A stretch of 64,000 nt of DNA from Candidatus Omnitrophota bacterium (GCA_028865345.1 JAGWKL010000002.1:665-64664), one strand, 5' to 3'; positions 5,720 through 35,674 are shown, counted from the stretch's first letter. The notes: a model not told the origin generated them from the letters alone. Program-made: numbers and translations.

Positions 5720-5739
5720 ACCCCTCTAAAATAATATTT

Positions 5740-16555: not shown

Positions 16556-17595
16556 AAAATAAGAAATTCTTTTTTGATCACGCCGATTTCACCCATGATG
16601 GGATTTTTAAACCACCGCTCGGTCCCTAAGCCCGCAACCTGGCCGGCCAGGCAGGCCAAATGGGCCAATACCCTGAAACCAACCGGCGATTCAAATGCCG
16701 AACTGACAATGGCCTTGCGTCGCGAAAGCCCGGCTTCCTTTATCCAGTCCAAAACCGGGACAACCCCCAACAGCATGGGCTTGAGGACATAAGCAACAAT
16801 GCCTTCATGTTGTGCTAAAGGCAACGAACAGCACCCCGGCACGAGTGTTTCATCCAAAGCCATCCGCATATGCGTCTTTTCGTAGAAAGCTCCCAATTGG
16901 GCCGGATCATTGACAGGCTCTTCGATAAAATCGATTTTTTGATTGCCGGCGAGCTCGGCAAAAACACAGGCTTCCTTGAGGCTCCACACCCGGTTGGCGT
17001 CTAAGCGCAAATAAGATTCATTGTCCAGCAGGGCGCGTATATCCTGGACTTTCTTAACATCCAGGGCGATATTACGGTCGCCCACCTTTAATTTGAACAC
17101 TTGGGGAACTTGTTGGGAAAAACGTTTGACGTCGGCCATAACGTCCTGATATGTTCCCTGCAATAAAACCGCCGTACGTACGTCTTTTAACTGGGCGCCT
17201 AAAAATTCAGCCAGGCTTTTGCCCGCAGCTTGTGCCGCCAGCAACAGAATGGCCGATTCGACGGAAAAACGTACGGATGCGCATAAATTTAAAATATGCC
17301 CATCATGCCTTAAAACTTCCAGTAATTCATCTTTCTGACGAGGGACATTGAATTCCTTTAAATAGGAACAGGTTTCGGCCAAATCATGTTTGGCGCGGCG
17401 GATAGTTTCAGGGCTGAAGCCTTCTAAGGGGGCGGCTTCGCCCTGGGCATTCAGTCCGCCGGAGGTTTGGAGAGTCAGATAAAATCCGTTACGCTCCGTA
17501 ATCTCATGACCGGCAAATGTAAAAGGCTTAAGGAAAGGCGTCTTAAAAGACAAAAAACTGCATTGGCCGATCGTTAGCTGCTGCACAAGACCCAT
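16552..17595 (-). CDS. menC: o-Succinylbenzoate synthase (enolase superfamily)
   Basis: FKLKVG, LRLDANRVWS, IDFIEEP and ALDETL metal-ligand motifs. The ORF track extends to 17634, and I prefer ATG 17595 to limit the overlap with menA. Confidence 0.8.
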   Translation of the reverse strand: MGLVQQLTIGQCSFLSFKTPFLKPFTFAGHEITERNGFYLTLQTSGGLNAQGEAAPLEGFSPETIRRAKHDLAETCSYLKEFNVPRQKDELLEVLRHDGHILNLCASVRFSVESAILLLAAQAAGKSLAEFLGAQLKDVRTAVLLQGTYQDVMADVKRFSQQVPQVFKLKVGDRNIALDVKKVQDIRALLDNESYLRLDANRVWSLKEACVFAELAGNQKIDFIEEPVNDPAQLGAFYEKTHMRMALDETLVPGCCSLPLAQHEGIVAYVLKPMLLGVVPVLDWIKEAGLSRRKAIVSSAFESPVGFRVLAHLACLAGQVAGLGTERWFKNPIMGEIGVIKKEFLIL

Positions 17596-18452
17596 CCCAA
17601 TGAAAAAAGCACGCTGTAGACCAGCAACAAACATCCGGTCTGTGCCAGGACCCGGTTAAGAGCAGGCCCATCCGCTTGCGTAAAAACGCCGATGATACTG
17701 GGGATGGCCAGAAAACCGGTCAGGGAAGCCACGGCGATGCCTTGGTAATCATCCGTAATAAGGACGACCGCGAAAGGTATTAATGCGGCCGCCAGGATGC
17801 AAAAAAGATATTCACCCATGGCAAAGCTCCTGCCGAAACGCACGGCCATGGTGAGTTTGCCCGCCCGGCGGTCGCCGTCAATGTCCCGCAGATTGTTCAC
17901 AGCTAAAATGGCTGCTGACAAAAAGCCCGGGGCCAGCCCCGCGACAATGACCGCCCAATTGATTTCCAGGCTTTGGACATAATAAGTCCCTGCGACGGCG
18001 ACAGGTCCGAAAAAGACCAGCACGAATAAATCTCCCAACCCCAAATATCCCAACGGCATCGGGCCTGCGGTATAAAAAATCCCTGAGACGATGGAGGCGA
18101 CCGCAATGACCAAAATGCAAAAACCGGCACGATGGATGAGGTAAACAGAAGACAAAGCTGCAAGTAGAAAGAAAATGATCGCTGCCGTCAGGACCACCCG
18201 GGGTTTGATCAAACCGGCCTGGGTGACGCGCACCGGCCCCTGGCGTTCAGAGGTGTCCGCACCCTTTTTAAAATCAAAATAATCATTGGCCAGATTGGTG
18301 CCGATCTGGATGCACAACGCCGCCGACAAGGCCATAAAAGCCGAAGGAGCGTGAAAAAGCCCGTCGCCAAAGGCCATGGCGGTACCGATAATCACAGGCG
18401 CAACCGCCGCAGGCAGGGTCTTGGGACGGATGGCAAGAAGCCAGGGATTCAT
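17574..18452 (-). CDS. menA: 1,4-dihydroxy-2-naphthoate polyprenyltransferase (UbiA family)
   Basis: NDYFDFKKGAD and NNLRDIDGD Asp-rich motifs, with about 8-9 TM helices. Confidence 0.85.
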   Translation of the reverse strand: MNPWLLAIRPKTLPAAVAPVIIGTAMAFGDGLFHAPSAFMALSAALCIQIGTNLANDYFDFKKGADTSERQGPVRVTQAGLIKPRVVLTAAIIFFLLAALSSVYLIHRAGFCILVIAVASIVSGIFYTAGPMPLGYLGLGDLFVLVFFGPVAVAGTYYVQSLEINWAVIVAGLAPGFLSAAILAVNNLRDIDGDRRAGKLTMAVRFGRSFAMGEYLFCILAAALIPFAVVLITDDYQGIAVASLTGFLAIPSIIGVFTQADGPALNRVLAQTGCLLLVYSVLFSLGWVLCSS

Positions 18453-18455
18453 AGG

Positions 18456-19289
18456 TCAGGGCCTCTTGGGAAATTTAGAAAAATCCGGTTTGCGTTTCTG
18501 CACAAAGGCATTACGGCCTTCCTGGCCCTCTTCAGTCATATAAAATAAAAGCGTGGCATTGCCCGCCAGCTCCTGCAAACCGGCCTGCCCGTCGCAATCC
18601 GCGTTCATGGCGGACTTGATGCAGCGGATGGCCAAAGGCGAATGCTGCAAAATTTCTTTGGCCCAACGGACGGTCTCTTTTTCCAATTCTCTATATGGGA
18701 CGACCGTGTTGACCAATCCCATCTCCAGCGCCTGCTTGGCATTATACTGCCGGCACAAAAACCAGATCTCGCGCGCCTTTTTCTGGCCGACAATGCGCGC
18801 CATGTAGCTTGAGCCGAACCCTCCGTCGAAGGACCCCACCTTCGGGCCCGTCTGGCCGAAGACCGCGTTGTCCGCGGCAATGGAAAGGTCGCAGACCATA
18901 TGAAGGATCTGACCGCCGCCCACGGCATAACCCGCCACCATGGCAATGACGGGTTTCGGACAGGAGCGTATCTGACGTTGAAAATCCAGCACATTCAAAC
19001 GGTTGGTGCCGTCCTTGTCCTTATAACCGGCATCCCCTCGGATCTTCTGGTCCCCGCCGGAACAAAACGCTTCTCTGCCTTCACCGGTCAGGATGATGAC
19101 GCCCACCTTCTCGTCATCGCGGGCATCGTTTAAAGCGTCCATCATTTCTTTGACTGTAACCGGCGTAAAAGCATTGCGTCGCTGGGGACGGTTGATCGTG
19201 ATCTTGGCCATGCCTTCCATCTTTTGATATTTGATCTCTGTGTAGGACTTAGCCGTTTTCCAGGAGAATTTCGACATATTGACCCTCAA
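18456..19289 (-). CDS. menB: 1,4-dihydroxy-2-naphthoyl-CoA synthase
   Basis: Crotonase fold. [14 protein letters not shown] and [12 protein letters not shown] are typical MenB segments. Confidence 0.9.
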
Positions 19290-19660: not shown

Positions 19661-21082
19661 TTACCACGAAAGGGTTGGACAATACAAGCCCTTTATTTCC
19701 CTTTGCCACCAGGCGCCGGTGGCTTTCCTGGCCTTAAAACCGGTAAAATGATACTCCCAAAAAGTGGCCTGAATGTAGCGTGGCGGATGACCGGCAAAAG
19801 GGTCCTTCGCAAACAAGCGCAGTACCGACGGATCGCCTTTTAAGAGACAGCGCATCAGATTGATCAACCAGGGGTTCTGGCGCCAATTGCTTAAAGAGGC
19901 AAACCACATTTGCCAATCCAGCCGGGGCTGATAAGGCACGGCCCAACCGGGAGCCCTGTAAATATTCCCCGGTTTATAAGGAAATTCGTACGGCTTCCAA
20001 TGGCTGCCGTCATTGCTTCCTTCCAGAATTATTTCATTACGCCGGGTCGTCATCACCGCAAAAAGACCGTAGTTATTGATGCTGCGCAAAGGGCTAAGCG
20101 CGTCCACGAGTTTCTCCACAGGCAGCGGCAAAGCCATACCCGCGAATGAATTCGCAATAAGCCCAAGGCTTACGGTCAAGATGAGCGCGGCCACAAGACA
20201 GGTGACAACCTTATGGATAGCCCCTCCCTCTATGACCTTGGCCCCAGCCAGGGGAATAAACTTAAGATGCCCGTCGTCCAAAAGGAGCAGGCAAAGGCCT
20301 ATGGCCAAAAGATTGAAAAAACAATAATTACCCGTCAGCATGATCAAGGATTGCAACACGACGATCCCCCAGAAGGCGATCAACCTTGCCCGTCGCCCGA
20401 AAAAAATAAAAAACGGCACAACGAGCTCAATGATAAAAACAAAAAGGCAGGACAATTTTTCAAACCACAACGGCAACTGGGCCATATACCAACTGATCAC
20501 GTTAGGCAAAGGCTGTGTCCAATAATGGTAGGTCAAGGCGGTGAGATCGGCCCAGTGGGGGTCTCCGCTGGCCAGCTTGACGACTCCGGACTCGAACATC
20601 AGGCGGAAAAGCAGCCAGCGCAAAAGCCAAATAACAATGATGGAAGGACGCACAGAGGGCTTTAATTGGATGCCCAATGGCCGCGGAAAAAGAAAGATCA
20701 AAAGAAAGCCGGCTTCCAGCAGCAAATTGTCCCACTGGAAACCTAAAAAGTCCTGGCCTGCGACCGTCAGGGACAAATAAAAAAGCCAGAGTAAAAAAGC
20801 TGACAACCCCGGCATGATCCCGAACAAAAGCAGGATGGAAAGCGCCGCCCCGCCCCAGCACAAAAACAACAAAAACCAGTCGCTATGATTCAGCCAGCAA
20901 AGGGTGGGGACAAGCCAAAAACGGCCGCCTCCTGCCTCTCCCTGCACAGAACGCAGAAAATCCCCGATGGGCAAAACGCCTTGGTGGCCGATAAGGCCCA
21001 ATACCTGCACTCCTAATGACCAAAAGGCCGCCAGATAAATCAAAGCCATCCATCGGCTGAAAACCCAGGCAGTAAGGACCAT
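19661..21082 (-). CDS. Lipase-maturation-factor (LMF1)-like polytopic membrane protein
   Basis: About 10 TM helices. The C-terminal soluble part (LLKGDPSVLRLFAKDPFAGHPPRYIQATFWEYHFT) resembles the conserved LMF C-terminus, from memory. Confidence 0.6.
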   Translation of the reverse strand: MVLTAWVFSRWMALIYLAAFWSLGVQVLGLIGHQGVLPIGDFLRSVQGEAGGGRFWLVPTLCWLNHSDWFLLFLCWGGAALSILLLFGIMPGLSAFLLWLFYLSLTVAGQDFLGFQWDNLLLEAGFLLIFLFPRPLGIQLKPSVRPSIIVIWLLRWLLFRLMFESGVVKLASGDPHWADLTALTYHYWTQPLPNVISWYMAQLPLWFEKLSCLFVFIIELVVPFFIFFGRRARLIAFWGIVVLQSLIMLTGNYCFFNLLAIGLCLLLLDDGHLKFIPLAGAKVIEGGAIHKVVTCLVAALILTVSLGLIANSFAGMALPLPVEKLVDALSPLRSINNYGLFAVMTTRRNEIILEGSNDGSHWKPYEFPYKPGNIYRAPGWAVPYQPRLDWQMWFASLSNWRQNPWLINLMRCLLKGDPSVLRLFAKDPFAGHPPRYIQATFWEYHFTGFKARKATGAWWQREIKGLYCPTLSW

Positions 21083-23462: not shown

Positions 23463-24623
23463 TTGAAGATCTCCCCCCATTTTAAAAGACACCGTTTCCG
23501 GACGCGAGTGATCAGGAAAATCGAAGAAATACCCGCCGAACAATGGGGCAAGGTCTTTCCTGACGTCCCGGAGAACTATTATTTTCTAAAAACCCTGGAT
23601 GAATCGAAATTCAACCAGTTCTCGTTCTATTATGTGCTGGTCTATCGCGGCCAACAACTCGTGGGCTGCGCCCCTTGTTTCCGGGTTGATTATTCCCTGG
23701 ACACCAGCATCAGCGGTCCCTTGCGCCGCCTCACCAACGCAATTACAAAAAAATTCCCCCGGCTTTTGAGCATCAGGGCCCTGGTTTGCGGCATTCCCAT
23801 GGGGCAGGGACAAATGGGGATCGCAGGATTCTCCTCGGCCGTATTCGAAGCCATTGAAAAGCGGATGGAATCCCTGGCCCGCAAACTCCACGCCCCCCTC
23901 ATTGCCTTTAAGGATTTCGACCGCTCTTATGATAAATTCTTCCATCCCCTGCTTCAGGATGACTTCATGAAGATCGACAGCCTGCCCATGACCTGCCTGA
24001 AACTTGATTTTTCCAGTTTTGAAGATTATCTAAAAACCTTGAGCAGCGCCACCCGTTATGACGTACGCCGGAAACTTAAAAAGGCCTCCGGCGCAGCCAT
24101 TGAACCGATGATCACCGATACCCTGGATGAAAACACCTTGAATGAAGTTTATGACCTGTACCTGGCGGCTGTTGAGACCCATGATATGGGCTTTGAAATT
24201 GTCCCTAAAGAGTTTTTCCGGCTGATCTCCAAAAACATGCCGCAGGAGACCAAATTCTTTCTGTGGCGGATCAACGGCAAGTTGACTGCCTTTGTCTTCT
24301 GCCTGGTCTCCAACGGGAAGCTCCTTGATTATTATCTGGGACTGGACCACACCCTCAGCCACGAATTCCATCTGTACTTTGTTAAATTCAAGGAAGTCTT
24401 TGAATGGTGTAAAAAGCACGGCGTCCAATCTTACGAAATGGGCGCCACGGGTTATGAACCCAAACGCCGTCTTAAATTTGAATTTATCCCGGTCTATCTC
24501 TACGTCAAAAGCCGATATAAAATATTCAGTCCCTTTTTAAAAATTTTGAGTTCTCTTCTTAAATTCGAAAATTTCGACCCGGAACTGCGACGATGGAAAA
24601 AATCACGAAAGTCAACCAACTGA
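23463..24623 (+). CDS. FemAB-like / GNAT-fold acyl- or aminoacyl-transferase family protein
   Basis: 386 aa. The overall pattern resembles the FemAB-like GNAT proteins of unknown substrate (IPAEQW...FLKTLDES...YYLG). The start is TTG, with no internal Met for more than 100 codons. Confidence 0.5.
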   Translation: MKISPHFKRHRFRTRVIRKIEEIPAEQWGKVFPDVPENYYFLKTLDESKFNQFSFYYVLVYRGQQLVGCAPCFRVDYSLDTSISGPLRRLTNAITKKFPRLLSIRALVCGIPMGQGQMGIAGFSSAVFEAIEKRMESLARKLHAPLIAFKDFDRSYDKFFHPLLQDDFMKIDSLPMTCLKLDFSSFEDYLKTLSSATRYDVRRKLKKASGAAIEPMITDTLDENTLNEVYDLYLAAVETHDMGFEIVPKEFFRLISKNMPQETKFFLWRINGKLTAFVFCLVSNGKLLDYYLGLDHTLSHEFHLYFVKFKEVFEWCKKHGVQSYEMGATGYEPKRRLKFEFIPVYLYVKSRYKIFSPFLKILSSLLKFENFDPELRRWKKSRKSTN

Positions 24624-24976
24624 CGCTTAGAATCCTTTTATTTCTGGTGGCCAATGACCTTTTGGATACCGCCGGCCAATTACTCATGAAAAAAGGGATA
24701 GTCCATCCTTTTAATTTTGCCTGTCCCGATGCTTTCCTTTTTTGGCTGGGGCTGGCCATTTATATCTCCAATTTCTTTTTATGGATGAACATCCTCTCCA
24801 AGGTCGATTTGAGCGTTGCCCTGCCTCTGGCCAGCAGCAGCTATATTTTGATACCTGTAGCTGCCGTGGTTTTCCTGCACGAATATGTGCCGCCGTTGCG
24901 CTGGCTGGGCCTGGCAGCCATTGTGGTTGGTATTTACTTTGTGGCCCAAAGCAAATCCTCTAAGGGGGCCCCATGA
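24593..24976 (+). CDS. Small 4-TM EamA/SMR-like transporter subunit (ArnE/ArnF-like), first of a pair
   Basis: 127 aa with four predicted TM helices, overlapping the next similar gene by 4 nt. Confidence 0.6.
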   Translation: MEKITKVNQLTLRILLFLVANDLLDTAGQLLMKKGIVHPFNFACPDAFLFWLGLAIYISNFFLWMNILSKVDLSVALPLASSSYILIPVAAVVFLHEYVPPLRWLGLAAIVVGIYFVAQSKSSKGAP

Positions 24977-25341
24977 AAACCATTGTCCTTGTCTTTATCG
25001 CCGAATGCCTGATGACCACAGGGCAGATTTGCTTCAAAAAAAGCACCAACAGCTTCCATATACAAGAAACCACGCCGGCGGCATGGATCATCGGATTGCT
25101 GAAATGCGTCTTGAAACATCCTCTTCTTTGGATGGGGGCTGCTTTCATGCTTGTGGGGCTGGTCTTCTGGCTGGCTGCCTTGAGCAGCGGGCAATTGAAC
25201 TTTGTTTATTTGCTGGGGAGCGTCCAATACATCTTCGCGCTTTTTGCCGCGCACTTTTTTCTGCAGGAGAAAATCGATGCTCCCAAATTGGCAGGCACCC
25301 TGCTGATCACACTGGGAGTGATTTTAACGGCAATGAGTTAA
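24973..25341 (+). CDS. Small 4-TM EamA/SMR-like transporter subunit (ArnE/ArnF-like), second of a pair
   Basis: 122 aa with four predicted TM helices. The paired arrangement is typical of heterodimeric SMR-like flippases. Confidence 0.6.
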   Translation: MKTIVLVFIAECLMTTGQICFKKSTNSFHIQETTPAAWIIGLLKCVLKHPLLWMGAAFMLVGLVFWLAALSSGQLNFVYLLGSVQYIFALFAAHFFLQEKIDAPKLAGTLLITLGVILTAMS

Positions 25342-26744
25342 TCAGCCAGGGCTTTTTGAAGAGCCTCTTCAAAAAGCATGAGACTTAAATCAATTTCTTC
25401 TTCGGTAATATAAAGAGATGGGGCGATCGTAAAGACGTTCTTATAATAGCCGCCCACATCGAGCACCAGCCCGCGCTTCTTACCGCCGGCCGTCAACTCA
25501 CCTTTTAAACCGATGTTGACTATTTTATCCGTCAATTCCTGATTGGGTGTAAATCCGTCCTTTTGACAGATCTCCATACGTAGGGCGAGACCTAATCCTC
25601 CCACCTCGCCGATATGAGGATATTTTTTCTGAAGGGCCTGCAGTTTTTTCAGGAAATAGGCCCCCTTTTGGGGGACTGTGACATCAAAATTCGATTCCTC
25701 GATAAGGTCCATCACCGCCAGGCCGGCGGCCGTCCCTAACGGGTTTGAAGAAAATGTCGAATGGGTCATGCCCGGCCCAAAAATTTCCGGATTGATTAGC
25801 TCTTCCTTGGCCCATATCCCTGAAAGCGGGTTAAGGCCGTTGGTCAGGGCTTTGCCAAAAATAATGATATCCGGCACCACATCAAAATGCTCGATGGACC
25901 ATAACTTGCCCGTGCGATAGAACCCCATTTGAATTTCATCAGCAACAAATAATATATTATGTTTGTCCAGGGTCTTTTTTAATTCTTTAAAATAATTCTG
26001 TGGAGGGGCGATATAGCCCCCTGTCCCCTGTACCGGCTCGACAAAAAAAGCCCCGTATTCACAGTTATTATTCTTAGTATTGATGACGGAATAGTATTCA
26101 GACTCAAACATTTTCTGGAATGGCTTTAAACAGGACAGATCGCAGCAGTCTTTCTTATCATGGACCGCCGTACAGCGGAAACGATAAGGATAAGGGACAA
26201 AATGGGCCCGGTCGCCAAAATGCCCGTAATGCTCACGGTAACGGTAGCTGGAGGTTATGGCCGTTGCCCCGAAGGTGCGCCCGTGATAACTGCCCATAAA
26301 AGCGAACACGGGTATTTTGCCCGTATAATTGCGAACGACCTTTAGGGCGTCCTCTACGGCCTGCGCCCCCCCGACGTTAAAATGCACGCGCCCCTTGACA
26401 CCGAACTTCTTTTCGATGTCCTGGGAAATCTTGGTGGCCAGCATGATCTTTTCCTCATGCAGATACTGGCAGGCCAACTGGGGCAAGGTATCGATCTGCT
26501 TCTTAAGAGCATCATTAAGGCGTTTGTTCTTATAGCCGAAATTAGCGGCGGAATACCACATTTGAAGGTCCATGTATTCCGTTCCCCGGGCATCATACAA
26601 ACGCATACCTTGGGCATCGCAAAAAATATTCGGATGTTGGGCGCGATGAACGGTATCTCCCCATGAGCAGTATTTGGACTCCAAGGCACGCAACTCTTCC
26701 TCACTCATCGGCCCTGCTTTTTGTTCAACGGTTCTTCCGGCCAC
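25338..26744 (-). CDS. Class III (omega-type) PLP-dependent aminotransferase
   Basis: GGAQAVEDALK, FVADEIQMGFYRTG, and the PLP lysine in IIFGKALTNG. 468 aa. Confidence 0.8.
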   Translation of the reverse strand: MAGRTVEQKAGPMSEEELRALESKYCSWGDTVHRAQHPNIFCDAQGMRLYDARGTEYMDLQMWYSAANFGYKNKRLNDALKKQIDTLPQLACQYLHEEKIMLATKISQDIEKKFGVKGRVHFNVGGAQAVEDALKVVRNYTGKIPVFAFMGSYHGRTFGATAITSSYRYREHYGHFGDRAHFVPYPYRFRCTAVHDKKDCCDLSCLKPFQKMFESEYYSVINTKNNNCEYGAFFVEPVQGTGGYIAPPQNYFKELKKTLDKHNILFVADEIQMGFYRTGKLWSIEHFDVVPDIIIFGKALTNGLNPLSGIWAKEELINPEIFGPGMTHSTFSSNPLGTAAGLAVMDLIEESNFDVTVPQKGAYFLKKLQALQKKYPHIGEVGGLGLALRMEICQKDGFTPNQELTDKIVNIGLKGELTAGGKKRGLVLDVGGYYKNVFTIAPSLYITEEEIDLSLMLFEEALQKALAD

Positions 26745-27453
26745 TGGTCAATACCTCCTTAAAATAATGATGGACATCACTTAAATCCTTATAAGCAATA
26801 ACAGGCAGCCCTTCTTTGTTCATGAAATCCAATAAGGTGCCCTTGGCAAACACCACGTCGGACACGCGCGCCGGGCAAAAATCCGACCGGCCGTCACCCA
26901 CGTAAACAATCAGCTTATTTTCCGTCTTGTCCTTGGTCAAATGGATCTTCTTGCAATGGGCGCAGTTCAGGCAAAAAGGATTGTCGTAAGGAAAGGACGG
27001 AATAATACGGTCGCGATAGAAACGCAAGGAATTGGCGTAGACCTTCAGGTCCTTGATCCCGTGATAAGCCAGGATCCATTCGACGATATAGGTAAAATTA
27101 TCGCTCAGAATGACAGGCTTGACGCCTTCCCGGACAAGCAGGGTCAGAAACTGATGGAAATGCGGGTCAAGTTCAACCTTCCTGAGGAACTTATGCAAGG
27201 CATTTTTGGAAAGCCGCACATTTTTTAACTGCCCTGTCAGGCATTCCTTGGTGCTTATTTTCTCGTCTTCCCACGACTTTTCCAGGGCAGCCCACCGGTC
27301 ATTGATCGAAAAGCGCTGGATGACATCATCCAACACGTCCGAGGTGGTCATAGTATTGTCGAAATCAAAAAAAACCCGGCAGTTCGACAAAACAATGTGC
27401 GACTTAAACTGCGACGCTGATTCCAATTGATTGAGACGGTTGACAAATGGCAT
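26725..27453 (-). CDS. HAD-superfamily subfamily IB phosphatase (PSPase/MtnX-like)
   Basis: Motif I FFDFDNTMT and motif IV YVGDGRSD. Cys cluster CLNCAHCKK as in MtnX-type enzymes. I use ATG 27453, because the longer track ORF overlaps the upstream gene. Confidence 0.75.
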   Translation of the reverse strand: MPFVNRLNQLESASQFKSHIVLSNCRVFFDFDNTMTTSDVLDDVIQRFSINDRWAALEKSWEDEKISTKECLTGQLKNVRLSKNALHKFLRKVELDPHFHQFLTLLVREGVKPVILSDNFTYIVEWILAYHGIKDLKVYANSLRFYRDRIIPSFPYDNPFCLNCAHCKKIHLTKDKTENKLIVYVGDGRSDFCPARVSDVVFAKGTLLDFMNKEGLPVIAYKDLSDVHHYFKEVLTSGRKNR

Positions 27454-27457
27454 AGGT

Positions 27458-28345
27458 TTAGGCGGGGACCGGTTCTCCGGCAAAAAACCGTTGCATATGC
27501 AGGGCCACCGAATTGCGCTCCTGGTCAGCGGTGATAATATGATAGGAATTATATAAAAGCACAAGTTCTTTACGGTCGGATTTGACCCTGCTGTAAATAT
27601 ACTGGGAATTACGCACCGAGCTCATATCGTCATGCTTGGCCTGGATCAGTTGAACGGGCACGGATATCCCTTGAAGGCGGGCGCTTAAATGTTTAACCAG
27701 CTTTTCCAATTGGTACAATAAGGTCAATGGAAAGAAAGGATAGCCGTATTGATGCACTTGTTCCATATTATCAAGGTCAGCCTTAATATAAAATTCATGG
27801 ATACGGCGGCGCACGGCCTTATTCTTGATACCGTAAGGCGGCTCTTCCTTATAATAAAAGAAATATTTCAATGGGGTCTTATAGGCCAAAGGCAGCAGAA
27901 AGCTATACCAAGGCGTGTTCCACCCATCGTAGAAAAGGGTGGGCGAAAGACAACTGACGCCGGCGATTTCAGTTTTAAATTCATCCGCCAAAAGCAGGGC
28001 CAGCAAAGCGCCCATGGAAAGGCCTCCGGCATAGACATGCTTATATTGCCCCCGGATATTAAGATAAGATTGGCGCACCGTCTGATAAAAATCCTGCCAT
28101 TTGCTCATTTGCAGGATGTGGATCGGCGCTCCATGATTGGCCAGGCGCGGGCAATAAACGGCATAGCCCTGGCGGTTTAAAAAATTGGCCAGGAACCTCA
28201 TTTCATGGGGAGTGCCTGTCATGCCGTGGATCAGGATGATGGCATTACCGTTAGAACCGGGCAATTCAAAACCATTGTCGGGCAAATGCGGTTTTTCAGC
28301 AGGCTTGAAGAAACCTCTTAAATTGACAGAAAATCTAACGGCCAT
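27458..28345 (-). CDS. Alpha/beta-hydrolase (esterase/lipase/thioesterase type)
   Basis: HGMTGTP oxyanion region, nucleophile elbow GLSMGA, C-terminal His in YNSYHII. Confidence 0.75.
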   Translation of the reverse strand: MAVRFSVNLRGFFKPAEKPHLPDNGFELPGSNGNAIILIHGMTGTPHEMRFLANFLNRQGYAVYCPRLANHGAPIHILQMSKWQDFYQTVRQSYLNIRGQYKHVYAGGLSMGALLALLLADEFKTEIAGVSCLSPTLFYDGWNTPWYSFLLPLAYKTPLKYFFYYKEEPPYGIKNKAVRRRIHEFYIKADLDNMEQVHQYGYPFFPLTLLYQLEKLVKHLSARLQGISVPVQLIQAKHDDMSSVRNSQYIYSRVKSDRKELVLLYNSYHIITADQERNSVALHMQRFFAGEPVPA

Positions 28346-28347
28346 TT

Positions 28348-28596
28348 CTATTTAATCCCTTTTTGAGAACTTATGTAATCCACGATATTCTTGACGGTCT
28401 TGGCTTCGTAAAGGGCCGCGTCCGGAATTTTCAATTCAAACTTCTCTTCCAATTCAAAAGCGATCTCCACCGACCCGAATGAGTCGATCCCCAGATCTTC
28501 CACCAGGCGCGAATCCAAATTGATTTTCGCCGCTTCCATGGTCAACTGCTTGGCCAAAATGTCCTTAACGGTCCCCTCAACTTCAGCGTACGTCAT
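28348..28596 (-). CDS. Acyl carrier protein (second stand-alone ACP)
   Basis: Attachment motif LGIDSFGSVEIAFELE. ATG 28596 is preceded by GGAG and lies just after the KAS stop. The 157-aa track ORF is an artefactual upstream extension. Confidence 0.85.
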   Translation of the reverse strand: MTYAEVEGTVKDILAKQLTMEAAKINLDSRLVEDLGIDSFGSVEIAFELEEKFELKIPDAALYEAKTVKNIVDYISSQKGIK

Positions 28597-28600
28597 GAGA

Positions 28601-29848
28601 TTAATCTCCGTTATAATCCGAAAAAACGACACAGGCATTGCAATTGCCGAACCCGAAAGAATTGGACAATACCGTCTTGAGATGCGCACAACGCCCTTCA
28701 TTAGGGACATAGTCGAGATCGCATTGCGGGTCCCTGTCCTTATAATTGATCGTCGGCGGAATGAACCTGTTTTTAATGGCCAATGCGCAAACCACCGCTT
28801 CAATGCCTCCTGCAGCCCCAAGGCTATGGCCGATCATGGATTTCGTCGAAGAAATCGGGACTTTATACGCTTTGGGACCGAACACATTCTTGATGGCCAT
28901 GGTTTCCGCACGGTCATTGGCCACGGTCGAGGTGGCATGGGCATTGATGTAATCAACCTGCCCGGCATCCCTCCCCGCATCTTTTAAGGCATCGGCCATG
29001 ACCCGCGCCGCATCTGCGCCGCTTAAATCCGGCATCACCATGTGACGGCCTCCGGAATTACTGGCATACCCGGCAACTTCCGCATATATAGGGGCATTTC
29101 TCCTGCGGGCATGTTCCAATTCCTCCATGATGACAAGCCCCCCGCCTTCGCTTAGCACAAAACCGTCGCGTTTCAAGTCAAAGGGGCGTGAGGCTTCCTC
29201 GGGAACGCTGTTTTTGGACATCACCCGCAAATAATAATACGCCTCAAAATTCAAAGGCGACAAGGTCGCTTCCACACCGCCGGTCACGCACAAGTCCATA
29301 TCGCCCCACTGGATCTTGCGAAAGGCCTCACCGATAGCATGATTGGCCGAAGCGCAAGCCGTGGAAATCACCATATTAGGGCCCAAGCATCCGTGCTGGA
29401 TGGCAATATGGCTGGACACCGCATTAGGTGAAATCCTTGGCACAGCCGTCGGATGACAGCGGGGGTTCGATTTTTCAAAGTGGGCGACCAATTGCTCTTC
29501 ATGGAACATCATGCCGCCCAAGCCGGAACCGATGACCACCCCGATGCGGTTTTTGTCCTCGGTCTCTAAGTCAAGACGACTGTCTTCGACGGCCATCTTG
29601 GTACAGGCCAGCCCAAAATGGACAAACCTGTCCACTTTTTTGACCACTTCCGAAGGCATATACCGGCAAGGGTCAAAACCCCTCACCTCTCCGGCTATTT
29701 TTGTATCGAAGTTGTCGGTATTAAAACCGCTGACTTTGACAACCCCTGACCGGCCCTGCATATTGGCCTGCCAAAAATCATCCTTGCCTATACCATTGCA
29801 GGCTACCACGCCCAAACCGGTGACAACCACACGCCGTTTCTTCGTCAT
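28601..29848 (-). CDS. Beta-ketoacyl-ACP synthase (FabF/KAS II-like)
   Basis: Active-site Cys in ISTACASANHAIG, with His motifs in YINAHATST and GHSLGAAG. 415 aa. Confidence 0.9.
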   Translation of the reverse strand: MTKKRRVVVTGLGVVACNGIGKDDFWQANMQGRSGVVKVSGFNTDNFDTKIAGEVRGFDPCRYMPSEVVKKVDRFVHFGLACTKMAVEDSRLDLETEDKNRIGVVIGSGLGGMMFHEEQLVAHFEKSNPRCHPTAVPRISPNAVSSHIAIQHGCLGPNMVISTACASANHAIGEAFRKIQWGDMDLCVTGGVEATLSPLNFEAYYYLRVMSKNSVPEEASRPFDLKRDGFVLSEGGGLVIMEELEHARRRNAPIYAEVAGYASNSGGRHMVMPDLSGADAARVMADALKDAGRDAGQVDYINAHATSTVANDRAETMAIKNVFGPKAYKVPISSTKSMIGHSLGAAGGIEAVVCALAIKNRFIPPTINYKDRDPQCDLDYVPNEGRCAHLKTVLSNSFGFGNCNACVVFSDYNGD

Positions 29849-30010
29849 TGTGAAAGAAAAACTAATTAAAAAATAATTTTAACTAAAACGTCATTAAGAA
29901 AACATTAATCTTTAATTATAAAATTTTAATGCCTCTTAAGCTCCTAACAACCCTAATTATAGGGGCATACTATACCATAATAATATCAAAAAAGAAAAAA
30001 ATATTTGTTA

Positions 30011-30055: not shown

Positions 30056-30487
30056 TTAGAACTTAAAACTGGCACCCTCTGGCGTGAAACTGGGACCGTC
30101 ATCGACATCGGAGTCTCCATTGCCGTCCGGGTTCAGGGAGGCAAGGATATTTTCTCTATTGATCCATTTCTTCATTTGCTCCCGGCTCAAAACCAGGCTT
30201 AATCTTTTATTTTCTTCTTCTTTCAACTTTTGTATGGCGCTTTTGACAGCCCCATGCTCCAGCAAACCGCCTCCCGCCACCTGCTGAAGGACCGCTTCGC
30301 GCTTGACCAGATAGTCTTGGACAATGGGGTACACGGCTTGAACCTGGGCCTTTGTCAATTGCAACACAGTCTTCATTTTGTTGACATTATAATCGACAGC
30401 AGACTGCATTTCTTTGGCTTGGGCCGATGCCCAGGGGCCCAATACCAAAAAAAAGGCCAAAACACCTGCCCCATATTTGCGGACCAT
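30056..30487 (-). CDS. Periplasmic LTXXQ-motif (Spy/CpxP-like) protein
   Basis: Signal peptide ending in ASAQA. LTKAQ and LSREQ motifs sit in a helical, charged 143-aa protein. Confidence 0.55.
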   Translation of the reverse strand: MVRKYGAGVLAFFLVLGPWASAQAKEMQSAVDYNVNKMKTVLQLTKAQVQAVYPIVQDYLVKREAVLQQVAGGGLLEHGAVKSAIQKLKEEENKRLSLVLSREQMKKWINRENILASLNPDGNGDSDVDDGPSFTPEGASFKF

Positions 30488-30603: not shown

Positions 30604-33600
30604 TTAGCGATCTCCCTGCGTCATAGAGCCCCCCAAAAATGCCCCTAAATCCTTCATCGGCTGAATGTCGATGATCACCGGCACGAAACCTGGGGCATTT
30701 TGCAGACGGGTGAGCATGGCAGGATCCATATGGAAATTAATGCCTTGGCCCGCATGTTGTGTCTGCAAATCCATGTGGGCGGCGGTCAGATCAATACCTC
30801 CGGTGGGAGTCATGGATTGATCGGCGTGCGCCATGGCAATTTTATCCATAAGTTGCCGGGCCATGAGTATCGCTCTGTGTTGATCAATAAAATTTGGGCT
30901 TGTCACGATAGAAACCGCTTTAGCCTTAACGGCCATTTGAGCTATTTTGTCCAGCATAGTTTCGACTTCAGCATTGGAATAGCCGTTAAATACGTCGAGA
31001 TCGACATCCACCAGATCATAAGGCTTTTCCTGCGGATCAATGGATGAGCCTGGTTGAGCGGCGTATCGCACCGGCCCTTCGTCGATCATTTGCACGGCAC
31101 GCAAAGTGTCCAGATTATAAAGCCAATGCCAATAAGGCAGGCCGCTTTTATCTGAAGCTATGAAACCTTCCTTAACAAAGGGAGCTATAAAACCTTCTAT
31201 ACCAAGGACATTTTGGGCATAACGATCAGCCTCGATGAGCTTGTCCGTGTTTTCCCCAAGAAACCCGCCGGAGCTATTATAACGGCGGGTAATCCGTGCA
31301 TCAGGGTGTGCATCAATATGCAATAAACTTAACCCCTTTTGAAGCATCCCTTGCCTCAACATCAACCACCAAAAGGTAAAGACATTGCTGTGATCGTCGG
31401 AAATAAAAACCATGGGGCCTTTTTTAAGATCGATCAAAACTTTTTTCGTTAGTCCGTAGATGGTCCCGTCCTTCGCCGTTGCGCCCTTGATCAGTTGTCC
31501 TCCCATCTTATCAGACCAGCCATCAACAATGTCCCAATCCGTGATGCCGGAGGCATTTATAGAAGAAAAACCCGCCTCTGCGAAACTCTTGAGAGACACC
31601 TTCATGGCACTGTCCTTTTTAATTTTAGGCTTTGGGGCCAATAAAACCAGGGCCTTTCCGTTGGAGAAATCACGGTTTGCGTTTTGGACGATGGTGTAAT
31701 TAAACCGGCCTGGGGCGGAATTTAATTCAGCAAGAGTGTCTACAACTTGAGCCGCTTTCCCCAAAGAAGTATATTGAACAAAGGAAGTGTCCATCATCAA
31801 TGCAGAAATAAACCCCCGGTTAAAATTTTCTAAATCAAAATGCTCAGCAGCCTCTTCTTTTGTCAAAAGGTCCCCCACATCAATCACAACCATCCTGTCG
31901 GTCCCCCCGGCCGATCCAACATCTACCAAAAAACCATTAGGCTTCATGACAAAACCCCGGGCCAACAATTTCTTATATAACTTAAAATAGCCGTTTAACA
32001 GAGTGTCTATTTTTTGGTGTAAAACATCAGGATCATCCTGATAAATTCTTCTTAAACTCCTTATCCGATCCAGCAACGGGACAACTTCTTGCTGTACGAC
32101 GGCATGGGGGACCCTGATGATGTGTCCGCCCACATTGACGTCCAGGTCCTTAAAAACGAGATACCCGGCCGCCAAGGGGCCCAAACGCTCCTGATATTCA
32201 TCATATTTTGACCAAACCTGAGGATCAGTGACACCCTTGACGACAATATCACGCCCTTCGACATTCCCTTTATAGACCACTGATTCCACTCCTCCGGCAA
32301 ATTTAATCAACGGGTGGTCTCTCAATTGGGAACGCAACACATTCTTTAACGCCTCCAGGCCGGTATCCTGCGCTTTTGAAGCCATGGCATTATCTTTGAT
32401 CTCCAGTTCGATGCCATGGCCCTTATCTTGGGGAACTAAATATTCATACTCCTCTGCAAAGCCGCCGAACCGCGTATCATCAGCGACTATCGCCGTGATC
32501 TTTCCGCCGCTCTTTTTGATGCCGAAAAAGAAATTGTGACTGCCGGCGAGGCCCACATTGACCTCATGGGTTTGTATATGGCGCGCTTGGAAGGCCTCCT
32601 TGACATTGGGCAATATTTGCGAGTAGCTGTCGATCAAATTCACCATTTCGGGCCTGGGCCCCAATCTTCCCAGGAAAAGCCCGACCTGGTTGTCCAGATC
32701 GTCGAGGTCTTCATTAAAGAAATGGGCGATAGACATTTTGCCCTCGCGGTCAATCACGACCGCCACCACGCAATCCCCCATTTCGACGGCATCTGTCCAA
32801 AACACGCCGTTAGTGGCGCCGATGACCGCCGTACGCTCGGATATTTCATGGCCGACAAATTCCTTACCCGTCGACAAATTCATCAAATTGATGTCCGGCT
32901 CAGGCGGGACATGAGATTTCAGATAGGAGTACTCGATCCCCAACGCGCCGGCAAAGGCCAGCGAAACGGCTATGACTTTAAGGGATTTGGGGACAGTCAT
33001 GGCCGCATTGGGCATTTGGTCCGTATACCGTATGACTTGATTTGCCTTCATGGCCAAATCAAACTTCACCCCTCCGGAAAAATATTTTCTCGGGACCATT
33101 TGCCGTGTCAGGGGGTCCCGTTTTTCCTCGATATAATTATAGACGCCTTTTTTAAACGCCTGCAGGTAACGCCGGTAAATTGCCTCCACCCGTAAGGGGC
33201 CGTTGAAGCCCACACCTGCCACTTTATTTTTACCGGCATAAGCTTGTGCCAGGATACTCTTTTTTATTTTCATCTTATACCAGGTAGCCAGGATCAAAGA
33301 ATTATAAACCTGACGCAAGACGGCAAAATTTTCATCTTCATTGACCTCCCTGGTCAATTCAGGGATGACGATTTCACGGATGACCTGACTCCCCAATTGA
33401 TTGGTGCCTCGGGCAACGGCCGCAGCACCCGACCCTTCATGCTTTTCAAGTGACAAATAATCCTGGTCCAGCATGACCTTTAGCCTGCTGCTTATCACAT
33501 AGGCCGTTTGTGCCCCGGTATTTTCATAGACCACGGCTTTTTGGGGAAGTATCCAGACTTTGTTAAACGTGTTCACTGCAATATCGGTCGTCCCGTATTT

Positions 33601-34101
33601 TTTCCGGGCCTCTTCATAAACACGTTTCCAAAACTTTTTTCCGGTTTGTCCCTCGGGATAAATCAGGCTGGCGGTGACCTGTTTAAGCAGGTAATCTTCA
33701 GCCAATAAATCACGGCCCATCCGTGTTGAACCAAAAGAAGGCGGGATGATCCTGTCTTTTTCATAAGGGCTTAAATTGACCCACAGGTCCTCTTCCGGGA
33801 CGGTCAATGATGCCAGGAAGTATTGGACCAGCCTGGCAGCTTCCCGTTTCAGCCCCTCCCTTCCTTCAGGATACTGGTCCCCCTGATCCAAAATAAAGTC
33901 GAATCTCAGAGGATCATCAGGATAAACTTTTATTCCTTTGAGGATGGGAGGCTCAAGAGGAGGACTTAAATGGACCATGACGCCGGGGGCAGGCAGACGC
34001 CATTCATCCGCCCGGGCCATGGGGATCGGCCCCATGACAAGCGTTACAAAAAAAGACAAAATGGTCAATACGCATATAGGGGACTTTGGGGTTTGGTTCA
34101 T
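30604..34101 (-). CDS. Large secreted or anchored modular protein of unknown function (1165-1180 aa)
   Basis: Signal peptide (ICVLTILSFFVTLVMGPIPMARA). An unrecognised ~340-aa N-terminal domain. A kinase-like segment (GGVESVVYKG...IVVKG...MKPNGFLVD...VVIDVGD). A UPF0489-like segment (FISDDHSNVF...LLHIDAHPDA...DVDLDVF). A distinctive C-terminal tail. A TTG at 34146 is an alternative start. Confidence 0.8.
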   Translation of the reverse strand: MNQTPKSPICVLTILSFFVTLVMGPIPMARADEWRLPAPGVMVHLSPPLEPPILKGIKVYPDDPLRFDFILDQGDQYPEGREGLKREAARLVQYFLASLTVPEEDLWVNLSPYEKDRIIPPSFGSTRMGRDLLAEDYLLKQVTASLIYPEGQTGKKFWKRVYEEARKKYGTTDIAVNTFNKVWILPQKAVVYENTGAQTAYVISSRLKVMLDQDYLSLEKHEGSGAAAVARGTNQLGSQVIREIVIPELTREVNEDENFAVLRQVYNSLILATWYKMKIKKSILAQAYAGKNKVAGVGFNGPLRVEAIYRRYLQAFKKGVYNYIEEKRDPLTRQMVPRKYFSGGVKFDLAMKANQVIRYTDQMPNAAMTVPKSLKVIAVSLAFAGALGIEYSYLKSHVPPEPDINLMNLSTGKEFVGHEISERTAVIGATNGVFWTDAVEMGDCVVAVVIDREGKMSIAHFFNEDLDDLDNQVGLFLGRLGPRPEMVNLIDSYSQILPNVKEAFQARHIQTHEVNVGLAGSHNFFFGIKKSGGKITAIVADDTRFGGFAEEYEYLVPQDKGHGIELEIKDNAMASKAQDTGLEALKNVLRSQLRDHPLIKFAGGVESVVYKGNVEGRDIVVKGVTDPQVWSKYDEYQERLGPLAAGYLVFKDLDVNVGGHIIRVPHAVVQQEVVPLLDRIRSLRRIYQDDPDVLHQKIDTLLNGYFKLYKKLLARGFVMKPNGFLVDVGSAGGTDRMVVIDVGDLLTKEEAAEHFDLENFNRGFISALMMDTSFVQYTSLGKAAQVVDTLAELNSAPGRFNYTIVQNANRDFSNGKALVLLAPKPKIKKDSAMKVSLKSFAEAGFSSINASGITDWDIVDGWSDKMGGQLIKGATAKDGTIYGLTKKVLIDLKKGPMVFISDDHSNVFTFWWLMLRQGMLQKGLSLLHIDAHPDARITRRYNSSGGFLGENTDKLIEADRYAQNVLGIEGFIAPFVKEGFIASDKSGLPYWHWLYNLDTLRAVQMIDEGPVRYAAQPGSSIDPQEKPYDLVDVDLDVFNGYSNAEVETMLDKIAQMAVKAKAVSIVTSPNFIDQHRAILMARQLMDKIAMAHADQSMTPTGGIDLTAAHMDLQTQHAGQGINFHMDPAMLTRLQNAPGFVPVIIDIQPMKDLGAFLGGSMTQGDR

Positions 34102-34175
34102 CTCTTTTAAAGTATGTAATATATTTAGATAAAAAACAAGGGTCAAAGAACAATAAAAATGGTAATATAACAGCC

Positions 34176-35276
34176 ATGCGTTTAAAAAAGGAAGAACTGT
34201 TTTTTGTAACTTCTTTTGAGCAAGCCTCCATCCTGCGTAAATACGCCATCCTCTTTCTGGTCTCCTCTGTTATTCCCATGGTCCTTTTATATTACGTCTA
34301 TTTTAAAAGCACCCGGATCGGGCACATCGCCATGCTGCTGATGGTAACGGGTGTTTTGGTGGGTTACTTTTCCATCCGAACCTTACTGACCAGGGCCATC
34401 AGTATCGCCGAGGAAAACCGCAAAGCGATCGAGCCTTTTTTAAAACCTGAAATCTTCAAAGAACTCAGCAAGGAAAAAAATGAACTGATGGCTTTAAACC
34501 ACTTGTTCTCCGCCATGACCAAACAGCTGGAAGCCAACATCAAAGAATTAAGATCCAAGAACGAGGAGCTTAAAACCCTGGACCGGCTCAAAGATGATTT
34601 TGTCAACAACGTTTCCCATGAATTGCGCCTGCCGTTGACCGTCATCCAGGAAAGCATACGCCAGATCGGCGAAGGGATGTTCGGCAAAGTCAATGACTTG
34701 CAGATGAAATACATCCATATGTCATTAAGAAATATCGACAGGCTCAGGGCGCTCATCGACAATATGCTGGACATTGCCAAGATTGAGAAAGGCAAGCTGG
34801 AACTCCTGAAAAAAAACGTTGATGTCAGCCAGATCATCAAAGAGGTCATCTCCGATTTTACGTTCAAAATTGAAAAAAAAGGTTTGGCCCTGAAAGCCGC
34901 CCTGCCTGACCAACCGCTTTGGGCAACGGTCGATAAAGATAAGATCACCCAGGTCTTGATCAACCTGGTCGGCAACGCCTGTAAATTCACCGAAAAAGGC
35001 CGCATCATCGTGTCCGCCTGCGACAGAGGGGATTTGATTGAATGCAGCGTCGAGGATTCCGGAATAGGCATTCCCCCGCAGGAGATGCCCCATCTATTCT
35101 CTAAATTCCATCAGATCGGCCGGCTGAAAAACCAGCCGGAGAAAGGGACAGGTTTGGGGCTGGTCATTTCCAAACATATCATCGAATTGCACAACGGGCA
35201 GATCCATGCGCAAAACCTGGAAGGAACGGGCACGAAATTCACCTTTACATTGCCTAAATCCCCCGGCGGACTTTAA
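34176..35276 (+). CDS. Sensor histidine kinase (two TM helices, short loop)
   Basis: H-box VSHELRLPLTVI, N-box LINLVGNACKF, G-boxes DSGIGI and GTGLGLV. ATG 34176 is preferred over the track start, which overlaps the divergent gene. Confidence 0.85.
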   Translation: MRLKKEELFFVTSFEQASILRKYAILFLVSSVIPMVLLYYVYFKSTRIGHIAMLLMVTGVLVGYFSIRTLLTRAISIAEENRKAIEPFLKPEIFKELSKEKNELMALNHLFSAMTKQLEANIKELRSKNEELKTLDRLKDDFVNNVSHELRLPLTVIQESIRQIGEGMFGKVNDLQMKYIHMSLRNIDRLRALIDNMLDIAKIEKGKLELLKKNVDVSQIIKEVISDFTFKIEKKGLALKAALPDQPLWATVDKDKITQVLINLVGNACKFTEKGRIIVSACDRGDLIECSVEDSGIGIPPQEMPHLFSKFHQIGRLKNQPEKGTGLGLVISKHIIELHNGQIHAQNLEGTGTKFTFTLPKSPGGL

Positions 35277-35293
35277 GGAAAGGAGTATTTTTC

Positions 35294-35674
35294 ATGAAGA
35301 AAATATTAATCATTGATGACGACGTGGACATCATTGATCTGGTCACCAACAGGCTGGAGAGAAACAACTATGAGGTCATATTTTCCAATGACGGCGATAA
35401 TGGGGTCAAAAAAGCCCTTGAGCAAAAACCTGACCTGATCATCATTGATGTCATGATGCCGCGCCTGCCGGGACCGGAAGCGGTCAAGCTCCTGAAATCA
35501 TATGAAGGGACCCAAAACATACCTATTCTTTTCTTTACCGCCATGAACTCATACCTGCCGCCTAATACCGAATTTGATGACATCAATGTGGGCGGCCAGT
35601 TTTTCCCCTCTATCCCCAAACCATTTGATCCCAACAGACTGTTGTCCTGTGTCCGGCTGCTTTTGGGAGAATGA
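35294..35674 (+). CDS. Single-domain response regulator (REC only)
   Basis: ILIIDDD start, DLIIIDVMMP phospho-acceptor context, and conserved Lys in PKPF. There is no output domain. Confidence 0.9.
   Translation: MKKILIIDDDVDIIDLVTNRLERNNYEVIFSNDGDNGVKKALEQKPDLIIIDVMMPRLPGPEAVKLLKSYEGTQNIPILFFTAMNSYLPPNTEFDDINVGGQFFPSIPKPFDPNRLLSCVRLLLGE

Follow-up and report, generated by a model that had tools for sequence, protein, structure and literature searches.

The subject of this analysis is an operon in a 64,000-nucleotide stretch of DNA (the window) from a Candidatus Omnitrophota bacterium (GCA_028865345.1, JAGWKL010000002.1:665-64664), which is identical to contigs of the NCBI Candidatus Omnitrophota metagenome-assembled genome (MAG) GCA_028871075.1. 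Five minus-strand open reading frames (ORFs) lie at 25338-29848 in the order β-ketoacyl-ACP synthase (KAS), acyl carrier protein (ACP), α/β-hydrolase, HAD (haloacid dehalogenase-type) phosphatase and class-III pyridoxal 5'-phosphate (PLP) enzyme. They converge on a plus-strand operon that encodes a FemAB-like protein and two half-size EamA proteins. Together, the eight genes are one copy of a widespread, horizontally spread cassette, which may build an amine-bearing acyl lipid and move it to the outer face of the membrane; we give this reading a probability of roughly 0.45. An earlier note on the same DNA had proposed an amino-functionalised lipid as the product of the five minus-strand genes, made by another route. 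The genes, and the sequence in which the two operons meet, are the following:

28601-29848, minus strand: FabF-type β-ketoacyl-ACP synthase II, first gene of the operon, 415 aa (PF00109 and PF02801; TIGR03150)
28348-28596, minus strand: dedicated ACP, 82 aa, with a PP-binding domain whose DSF serine aligns with the DSL of AcpP
27458-28345, minus strand: cytoplasmic α/β-hydrolase (Hydrolase_4), 295 aa, with a GLSMG nucleophile motif; monoacylglycerol-lipase/Est30-like
26725-27453, minus strand: MtnX-like HAD-IB phosphatase, 242 aa (TIGR01489), with a DxD nucleophile motif and a conserved Cys motif
25338-26708, minus strand: atypical class-III (fold-type I) PLP enzyme, the anchor of the cassette (PF00202, 265 bits; alternative GTG start at 26744)
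25338-25341: TTAA holding the stop codons of both convergent operons, read directly from the sequence
24973-25341, plus strand: half-size EamA/DMT protein, weakly ArnE/ArnF-like (ArnE 29.3 and ArnF 22 bits, below cutoff); predicted second subunit of a flippase or exporter
24593-24976, plus strand: half-size EamA/DMT protein, ArnE-like (57.9 bits against a cutoff of 92); predicted first subunit of a flippase or exporter
23463-24623, plus strand: FemAB_like/Acetyltransf_6 protein with tandem GNAT domains (the public call starts at about 23508, 371 aa)

The order, strand and reading frames that had been proposed for the five genes hold, and so do all the domain identities (KAS, ACP, hydrolase, MtnX-like HAD and class-III enzyme), which are borne out by profile matches. 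The tight packing needs some adjustment: the first three intergenic gaps are 4, 2 and 4 nt, and the junction between the HAD and PLP-enzyme genes is either a 20-nt overlap, if translation starts at GTG 26744 (7 nt after an AAGGAGG), or a 16-nt gap, if it starts at ATG 26708. The ATG, giving a protein of 456 aa, is more probably the start, as the public gene call and the alignments of homologues agree on it. Both stop codons do fall within the TTAA at 25338-25341, as had been noticed.

Conservation of the cassette

Relatives of the PLP enzyme were sought in one genome per GTDB species, which yielded 587 candidates, and a plasmid search supplied further loci beyond these genomes. The best 80 of the 587 (L001-L080) are all at least 60% identical to the window enzyme, and their hosts are Omnitrophota, Opitutaceae, Acidobacteriota, Aquificota, Gamma- and Betaproteobacteria, Parachlamydiales, Bacteriovoracaceae and Auribacterota. 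The plasmid search adds Agrobacterium, Rhizobium, Sinorhizobium, Phyllobacterium, Bartonella and Xanthomonas at 58-61% identity, with the next match, a Bacillus GabT, at 33%. The enzyme thus belongs to a sharply bounded orthologous family, tight across phyla (58-85% identity). NCBI annotation of the cassette proteins is generic only.

The full eight-gene synteny recurs in L001-L003 with proteins 63-89% identical, and the HAD/PLP-enzyme pair is present in 83 of 87 loci, in 80 of which the HAD gene lies directly upstream on the same strand; the arrangement is therefore far beyond chance. The gene set recurs across phyla, as its reading as a functional unit implied, though the invariant core is the HAD gene directly upstream of the class-III enzyme gene, and not KAS and ACP. 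The most constant partner of the PLP enzyme is thus the MtnX-like phosphatase, for which the scheme of the earlier note had no role.

For a census of the surroundings, the neighbouring ORFs of 51 loci with at least 5 kb on both sides were clustered and searched with family hidden Markov models (HMMs). HAD is found in 50 of these loci, KAS in 31, ACP in 29, the hydrolase in 26 and a PaaK/DVU_1553-like adenylating ligase in 22; they are followed by a UgtP-like (diglucosyl-diacylglycerol-synthase-like) glycosyltransferase (20), EamA (18), FemAB-like (16), arginase-fold (13) and DegT aminotransferase (8) proteins. The hydrolase and the PaaK-like ligase never occur together, as expected of alternative coupling enzymes. 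Flavour A, with the hydrolase and with or without FemAB-, EamA- and arginase-like partners, is found in Omnitrophota, Opitutaceae, Proteobacteria, Aquificota and chlamydiae, while flavour B, with the ligase and the glycosyltransferase, belongs to Acidobacteriota; KAS and ACP occur in both.

In Agrobacterium and Rhizobium a single operon carries, in this order, genes for a response regulator and histidine kinase, HAD, the PLP enzyme, an arginase-family protein, EamA, in some cases a desaturase, the hydrolase, the FemAB-like protein, a second EamA and in some cases a CMAS-type cyclopropane synthase (307 bits), and it is flanked by MacAB/TolC pumps or MipA/OmpV. The convergent operon of the window had been treated as separate from the five genes; in these hosts its FemAB-like and EamA genes are in one operon with HAD, the PLP enzyme and the hydrolase, and it is rather part of the same system. 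The TTAA overlap between the two operons is not kept in relatives, the gap being about 100 nt in L001. Xanthomonas sacchari has the Agrobacterium/Rhizobium gene set plus KAS, ACP and DegT, and in Sulfurihydrogenibium the order is response regulator, kinase, HAD, PLP enzyme and hydrolase, followed by an RND pump.

Another arrangement is found in L070 (a gammaproteobacterial MAG), in Legionella steigerwaltii (L093) and in a Legionellales-like metagenome contig. Here, the hydrolase is the C-terminal domain of a fusion with a fatty acyl-AMP ligase (FAAL) and an ACP, and in all three of these divergent Legionellales genomes this FAAL-ACP-Hydrolase_4 protein directly adjoins the PLP enzyme and HAD. 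In Legionella, the PLP enzyme shares 60% identity with the window enzyme and has the signatures of the family. Through the fusion, the hydrolase is linked to a fatty acyl substrate on ACP. A paralogue of the fusion on a Legionella metagenome contig (P0250 in L094; 33% identity to the L070 fusion) has neither HAD nor PLP enzyme as a neighbour; the architecture is thus broader than the cassette, and not every such fusion belongs to it.

Two further settings deserve description in their own right. On a plasmid of Bartonella sp. HY406 (L086, 7219-14959), genes for the PLP enzyme, a FemAB-like and an arginase-like protein stand without an adjacent HAD gene, and their neighbours are the cycA D-Ser/D-Ala/Gly transporter gene and a pair of MBOAT and AlgX-like O-acyltransferase genes. 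In the Blastocatellia/Pyrinomonas loci of subdivision-4 Acidobacteria (L044, L047, L048, L052, L057, L067 and L073), the HAD/PLP pair is embedded among a PTO1314-like radical SAM protein, an ABC-2 exporter, two UgtP-like glycosyltransferases, a duplicated HAD and a B12-binding radical SAM protein with DUF4070.

Enzymes of the core and of the acyl modules

What kind of reaction does the class-III enzyme catalyze? Its cofactor machinery is intact: the PLP Lys, the Asp, the Arg of the HGRT motif and two Arg of a SYRYR motif are invariant in all 87 family sequences compared, the SYRYR motif being specific to the family. In GabT/OAT-type enzymes, a Glu/Arg pair gates and binds the α-carboxylate of glutamate or 2-oxoglutarate. 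Both of these positions are occupied by Thr in the cassette family (87/87 at the Glu position, 86/87 at the Arg position), so that, on these alignments, the family has lost the canonical gate pair. Among solved structures, the nearest are class-III enzymes of Pyrococcus (E-59 to E-53), an Ala/Ser and a broad-specificity racemase being among them. The window enzyme reads QGTGG where 7vno has QGEGG and two racemases have QGDAG, and NVFTIAP where all three closest solved relatives carry an Arg, as NV(I/L)R or AIR. Scores on the curated equivalogs, among them GabT, ArgD, BioA, EctB and PbfA, stay below their cutoffs, with 293 bits against 552 for the best NCBIfam match and 204 against 405 for BioA. 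A biotin-like logic combining KAS, an esterase and BioA was dismissed on this BioA score.

These features could also be those of a racemase, epimerase or aminomutase that acts on a single substrate and feeds an unusual amino compound to the FemAB-like enzyme. The Pyrococcus racemases rank within the top three solved relatives, the family has lost both residues of the gate that a second substrate, a keto acid, would require, and the D-Ser/D-Ala/Gly transporter gene adjoins the PLP enzyme in Bartonella, where HAD is missing. However, the solved racemases retain the Arg that the cassette family has lost, aminoacyl-tRNA-dependent transferases take proteinogenic L-aminoacyl-tRNAs, and the link to the phosphatase would have no explanation. 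We regard this assignment as quite unlikely.

The KAS is a genuine FabF-type enzyme by profile, with 512 bits on TIGR03150 (fabF) for a cutoff of 493.75. Its Cys165, His304, His341, Lys336 and Phe400 align with the catalytic residues of E. coli FabF, in which the triad is C163/H303/H340. Its surroundings are not those of housekeeping fatty acid synthesis: fabD, fabG, fabH and fabZ are all absent from the 64-kb window, and KAS precedes ACP, which inverts the acpP-fabF order of housekeeping clusters. Among cluster-linked KASs, only those of Omnitrophota and Opitutaceae are close to the window protein (55-79% identity); it is 38-44% identical to the acidobacterial and gammaproteobacterial cluster copies, compared with 43% to E. 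coli FabF. As cluster KASs from separate phyla resemble one another no more than they resemble E. coli FabF, KAS has been recruited more than once. From these comparisons KAS reads as an accessory acyl-chain module, and the KAS-ACP combination as frequent yet dispensable.

This bears directly on the route that had been proposed for the five genes. In that route, KAS extends a chain on the private ACP, the hydrolase frees the β-keto acid (or a decarboxylated methyl ketone) and an omega-type transaminase aminates it, giving a β-amino fatty acid or a 2-aminoalkane. KS-ACP-aminotransferase modules of the iturin/mycosubtilin type do form β-amino fatty acids. The window genes form one operon in the corresponding order, 31/51 loci have KAS and ACP near the PLP enzyme, with independent recruitment in several phyla, and an enzyme that has lost the α-carboxylate gate could suit a hydrophobic ketone. 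Against this, the PLP enzyme and HAD occur without KAS in 20 of the 51 loci, including every α-proteobacterial (Agrobacterium and Rhizobium), Legionella and Aquificae locus seen, and the FAAL-ACP of Legionella makes no β-keto group. Moreover, the ever-present phosphatase is left without a role, and the amino donor would still require a carboxylate site. KAS is dispensable across the cassette family and no reductase accompanies it, in which the cassette also departs from the Spt and KS-ACP-aminotransferase systems. The sequence of extension, release and keto amination is thus not sustained, and we judge it unlikely.

The HAD phosphatase belongs to the MtnX-like subfamily (TIGR01489, 110 bits for a cutoff of 81.6). 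Its scores on the MtnX equivalogs are far lower than required (69.7 against 303 and 78.3 against 292), and no mtn genes were seen in the window. The CxxCxxC cluster that had been pointed out is part of a C-x2-C-x2-C-K motif, whose outer Cys are conserved among 84 homologues (82/84 for the first, 83/84 for the third) and whose middle position is Cys in 66 and Ser in 11. The protein also matches PF06888, a family that includes phosphoethanolamine/phosphocholine phosphatases. The closest solved relatives of the hydrolase are monoacylglycerol lipases and the carboxylesterase Est30 (about E-25). In the setting of the cassette, it is predicted to offload or transfer an ACP-bound acyl group.

Taken by themselves, the affinities of these two proteins would fit a module that breaks down or recycles the amine-containing head groups of phospholipids, in which a lipase deacylates, a PHOSPHO1-like HAD cleaves phospho-amino-alcohols and the class-III enzyme deaminates. 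The HAD match to PF06888 and the likeness of the hydrolase to monoacylglycerol lipases agree with such a module, as does the inclusion of ethanolamine-phosphate phospho-lyase in class III. The condensing enzyme, ACP and FAAL are biosynthetic, however, catabolism leaves no room for a FemX/MprF-fold transferase or a flippase-like pair, and the core comes with neither a catabolic dehydrogenase nor an uptake system. Of the rival explanations, this one is the least likely, and a very improbable one.

A possible route to an aminolipid

The succession of aminotransferase, carboxyl coupling and HAD phosphatase has been shown experimentally for the serinol-phosphate amidation of glucuronate in the HS:2 capsule of Campylobacter jejuni (PMC11800397). 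There, Cj1437 is the aminotransferase that converts dihydroxyacetone phosphate to serinol phosphate, Cj1438C the amide ligase and Cj1435 the HAD phosphatase (PMC11800397).

By analogy with this module, the cassette could work as follows. The class-III PLP enzyme would aminate a phosphorylated carbonyl compound akin to dihydroxyacetone phosphate or glyceraldehyde phosphate and so yield an amino-alcohol phosphate, while KAS and ACP would supply a dedicated (3-oxo)acyl thioester, a role that may fall to FAAL-ACP or to housekeeping acyl donors in other lineages. The α/β-hydrolase would then move the ACP-bound acyl group onto the amino-alcohol phosphate as a putative head group; in Acidobacteria, the PaaK-like adenylating ligase and the UgtP-like glycosyltransferase stand in its place. 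HAD would remove the phosphate before or after coupling, in the manner of the Cj1437/Cj1438/Cj1435 series. Next, the FemX/MprF-fold enzyme would add an aminoacyl residue from a presumed aminoacyl-tRNA donor to the presumed lipid acceptor, and an arginase-fold partner, where present, might trim Arg to Orn, which is speculative. Finally, the ArnE/F-like pair would flip or export the product.

Several lines of evidence lead to the amine-lipid model: the constant pairing of PLP enzyme and HAD, the interchangeable hydrolase and ligase, the optional and polyphyletic acyl modules, the frequent addition of Fem/MprF-fold, ArnE/F-like and arginase-fold proteins, and the presence of lipid-chain enzymes. 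A lipid context is indicated by KAS/ACP in 31 of the 51 loci, the FAAL-ACP-hydrolase fusion of Legionella, the desaturase and CMAS of Rhizobium and Agrobacterium, and the UgtP-like glycosyltransferase of Acidobacteria. In this respect, the lipid context assumed in the earlier note is supported, while its β-keto amination is not. The FemAB-like protein has the tandem-GNAT fold of the Fem/MprF-type transferases and is predicted to be an aminoacyl-tRNA-dependent transferase; mentions of the COG3146/FemAB_like family in the literature are scattered and non-decisive.

A number of observations weigh against this model. With the Glu/Arg gate gone, the amino donor of the PLP enzyme is unexplained, and the enzyme might be no transaminase at all, given that racemases are among its closest solved relatives. 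The hydrolase is most similar to lipases and esterases and may merely hydrolyse. The PLP enzyme of Bartonella has no adjacent HAD, and an HMM of the arginase-like family found no such partner in the window. The substrates are all inferred, and the choice of head-group precursor is a guess. Lastly, the EamA halves, together with the MacAB or RND pumps beside several loci, would also suit the export of a soluble amine.

This last point can be developed into an alternative in which the PLP enzyme, HAD and the arginase-fold protein make a soluble small amine (a polyamine, amino-alcohol or guanidino-derived compound) that is modified by the GNAT protein and exported via the SMR/EamA-like pair and efflux pumps. 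The EamA halves match the SMR family too, in Agrobacterium and Sulfurihydrogenibium the cassette has MacAB-TolC or RND pumps beside it, and an arginase-fold partner is present in 13/51 loci. On the other hand, KAS/ACP, FAAL-ACP, the desaturase, CMAS and the UgtP-like glycosyltransferase lie inside the clusters and indicate acyl chains, so a soluble product seems improbable.

The amine-lipid model can also be put in a bolder form, which we consider rather doubtful. The cassette might make an undescribed class of membrane lipid with an amide- or ester-linked acyl amino-alcohol (serinol-type) core, aminoacylated by a split MprF-like tRNA-dependent transferase and flipped by the ArnE/F-like pair, with conversion of Arg to Orn where the arginase-fold gene is present. 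It would then constitute a self-contained, two-component-controlled cationic-lipid system in at least eight phyla.

How does the cassette relate to known systems? It resembles a blend of the MprF, Arn and ornithine-lipid systems and the Cj1435-Cj1438 module, yet it differs from each of them. With the C. jejuni module, compared by reaction logic only, it shares the three-part logic of aminotransferase, amine coupling and HAD dephosphorylation, and the acidobacterial flavour (glycosyltransferase, adenylating ligase, PLP enzyme and HAD) is its nearest mirror. However, there are no Cj143x-like entries among the solved relatives of the PLP enzyme or of HAD, the cassette PLP enzyme is of class-III fold and its active site is altered, the predicted carboxyl partner is an acyl-ACP or lipid instead of capsule glucuronate, and coupling would be by the α/β-hydrolase or the PaaK-like ligase and not by an enzyme of the Cj1438C type.

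In contrast to the aminoacyl-phosphatidylglycerol synthase-flippase MprF/LpiA, synthase and flippase are separate genes in the cassette, the flippase candidate being an ArnE/F-like DMT pair and not the MprF membrane domain, and identity to MprF at the sequence level is no more than 11-13%. That the cassette brings a PLP enzyme, HAD and acyl modules of its own suggests that the acceptor lipid is a different one. The Arn pathway, which modifies lipid A with 4-amino-4-deoxy-L-arabinose (Ara4N) and in which ArnE/ArnF is the flippase for undecaprenyl-phosphate-Ara4N, has in common with it an aminotransferase making a cationic group, a small heterodimeric ArnE/ArnF-like transporter and a frequent two-component linkage, and a DegT/ArnB-type aminotransferase occurs in 8/51 cassette loci. 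Nevertheless, homologues of ArnA, ArnC, ArnD and ArnT are absent from the window and from the conserved neighbourhoods, the two EamA halves score 57.9 and 29.3 bits for a cutoff of 92, and the core aminotransferase is class III and not DegT.

Ornithine-lipid synthesis, by the N-acyltransferase OlsB and the O-acyltransferase OlsA, is similar in giving a phosphorus-free aminolipid from ACP-linked acyl donors with a GNAT-type enzyme. It differs in that the family matches of the cassette include no OlsB, OlsA or OlsF signatures, that the GNAT protein here has a Fem/MprF-type fold, and that a PLP enzyme and a phosphatase are foreign to the ornithine-lipid route. The Spt sphingolipid pathway (Spt, ACP, acyl-ACP synthetase, bCerS and CerR) likewise uses a dedicated ACP, a condensing step and a PLP enzyme for an amino-functionalised acyl chain, but its α-oxoamine synthase family, PF00155, is absent from the cluster genes and the annotated conserved neighbour families. 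The earlier note had set both of these pathways aside. No characterised match came to light for the gene set, and no curated family, nor any paper describing the set, was found in the full-text literature searched with combinations of the gene families.

Two other products were considered and rejected. An aminopentanetetrol head group came to mind with the two Aquificota loci that carry the core; the literature gave no biosynthetic link, and most cassette hosts are not known to have this lipid. As for hopanoid amination of the HpnO type, the conserved neighbourhoods showed no genes for hopanoids, and no hopanoid family is among the 25 best of 69 aminotransferase NCBIfam matches; many hosts (Rhizobium, Agrobacterium, Legionella, Xanthomonas) are not known to produce hopanoids.

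Regulation, flanking genes and significance

Two features of the window may be connected with the control of the cassette:

29923-29950, minus strand: weak candidate for a sigma-70-like promoter, within the AT-rich gap that precedes the KAS gene (9/12 matches; the whole scan is at chance level)
34176-35674, plus strand: histidine kinase and response regulator, a possible regulator of the cassette whose membership is uncertain

Scanning the locus for promoters and terminators gave no better than chance results, and a riboswitch or other known RNA was sought upstream of either operon and not found. Within 9 kb of the PLP enzyme, a response regulator is present in 24 of the 51 loci and a kinase in 16, and two-component genes directly adjoin the cassette in Sulfurihydrogenibium, Agrobacterium and Rhizobium. 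Most likely, a two-component system controls the cassette, which would serve as a response that remodels the envelope.

Directly upstream of the KAS gene (30056-30487, minus strand) lies a gene for a 143-aa signal-peptide protein with LTxxQ-like motifs reminiscent of the CpxP/Spy-type periplasmic stress proteins; it has no Pfam or NCBIfam match and is kept at this place in L001-L003 only. Beyond it (30604-34146, minus strand) is a secreted protein of about 1165-1180 aa with a signal peptide, the C-terminal part of which matches UPF0489/FlmR_OhkR_N (peptide-arginase-like). It has the metal-ligand-like motifs DDHS, DAHPD and DVDLD, and relatives of it lie near the PLP-enzyme clusters in L003, L007 and L009. 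The arginase-like partner of other cassettes shows the ureohydrolase metal-ligand pattern GSGD(F/Y)HH, DxHPD and (I/L)DKD. As a substitute for that partner, the UPF0489 protein gained no support: hhalign matches the DxHPD motif only, at 4.8% probability, and there is no detectable homology.

The wider flanks of the cassette are housekeeping, with xseAB and men genes on one side and the large secreted protein, the two-component system and an H+-pyrophosphatase on the other. The membrane H+-pyrophosphatase gene is in fact present as two paralogues less than 8 kb apart (35916-38321 and 41577-43973, both on the minus strand). On the other side, MenB/A/C/E (15218-19289) stand beside a gene for a bacterial protein with LMF1 (200 bits) and LMF1_C (169 bits) domains (19661-21082, minus strand). 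Further out, a second small ACP (about 5489-5719) and a 4HBT thioesterase come after a FadL/Toluene_X-like outer-membrane protein, whose gene is at 5740-7014 (minus strand). Near position 5254 the matching NCBI contig stops, though the window goes on, and the GC content falls to 0.33 in 4001-6000.

The product of the cassette is most likely a nitrogen-containing acyl lipid that is made and exported. If the amine-lipid model is true, the PLP family, with its 587 candidate GTDB relatives, would mark an unrecognised route to nitrogen-containing envelope lipids, which bear on cationic-peptide resistance, stress adaptation and the reading of environmental lipid biomarkers. The PLP enzyme is of enzymological interest in its own right, having retained its cofactor machinery, lost the gate pair for dual substrates and gained the invariant SYRYR arginines. 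The hosts range from uncultured Omnitrophota to the tractable Agrobacterium, Rhizobium, Xanthomonas and Legionella, and since the cassette is found on plasmids and chromids of cultured hosts, the hypothesis is directly testable there.

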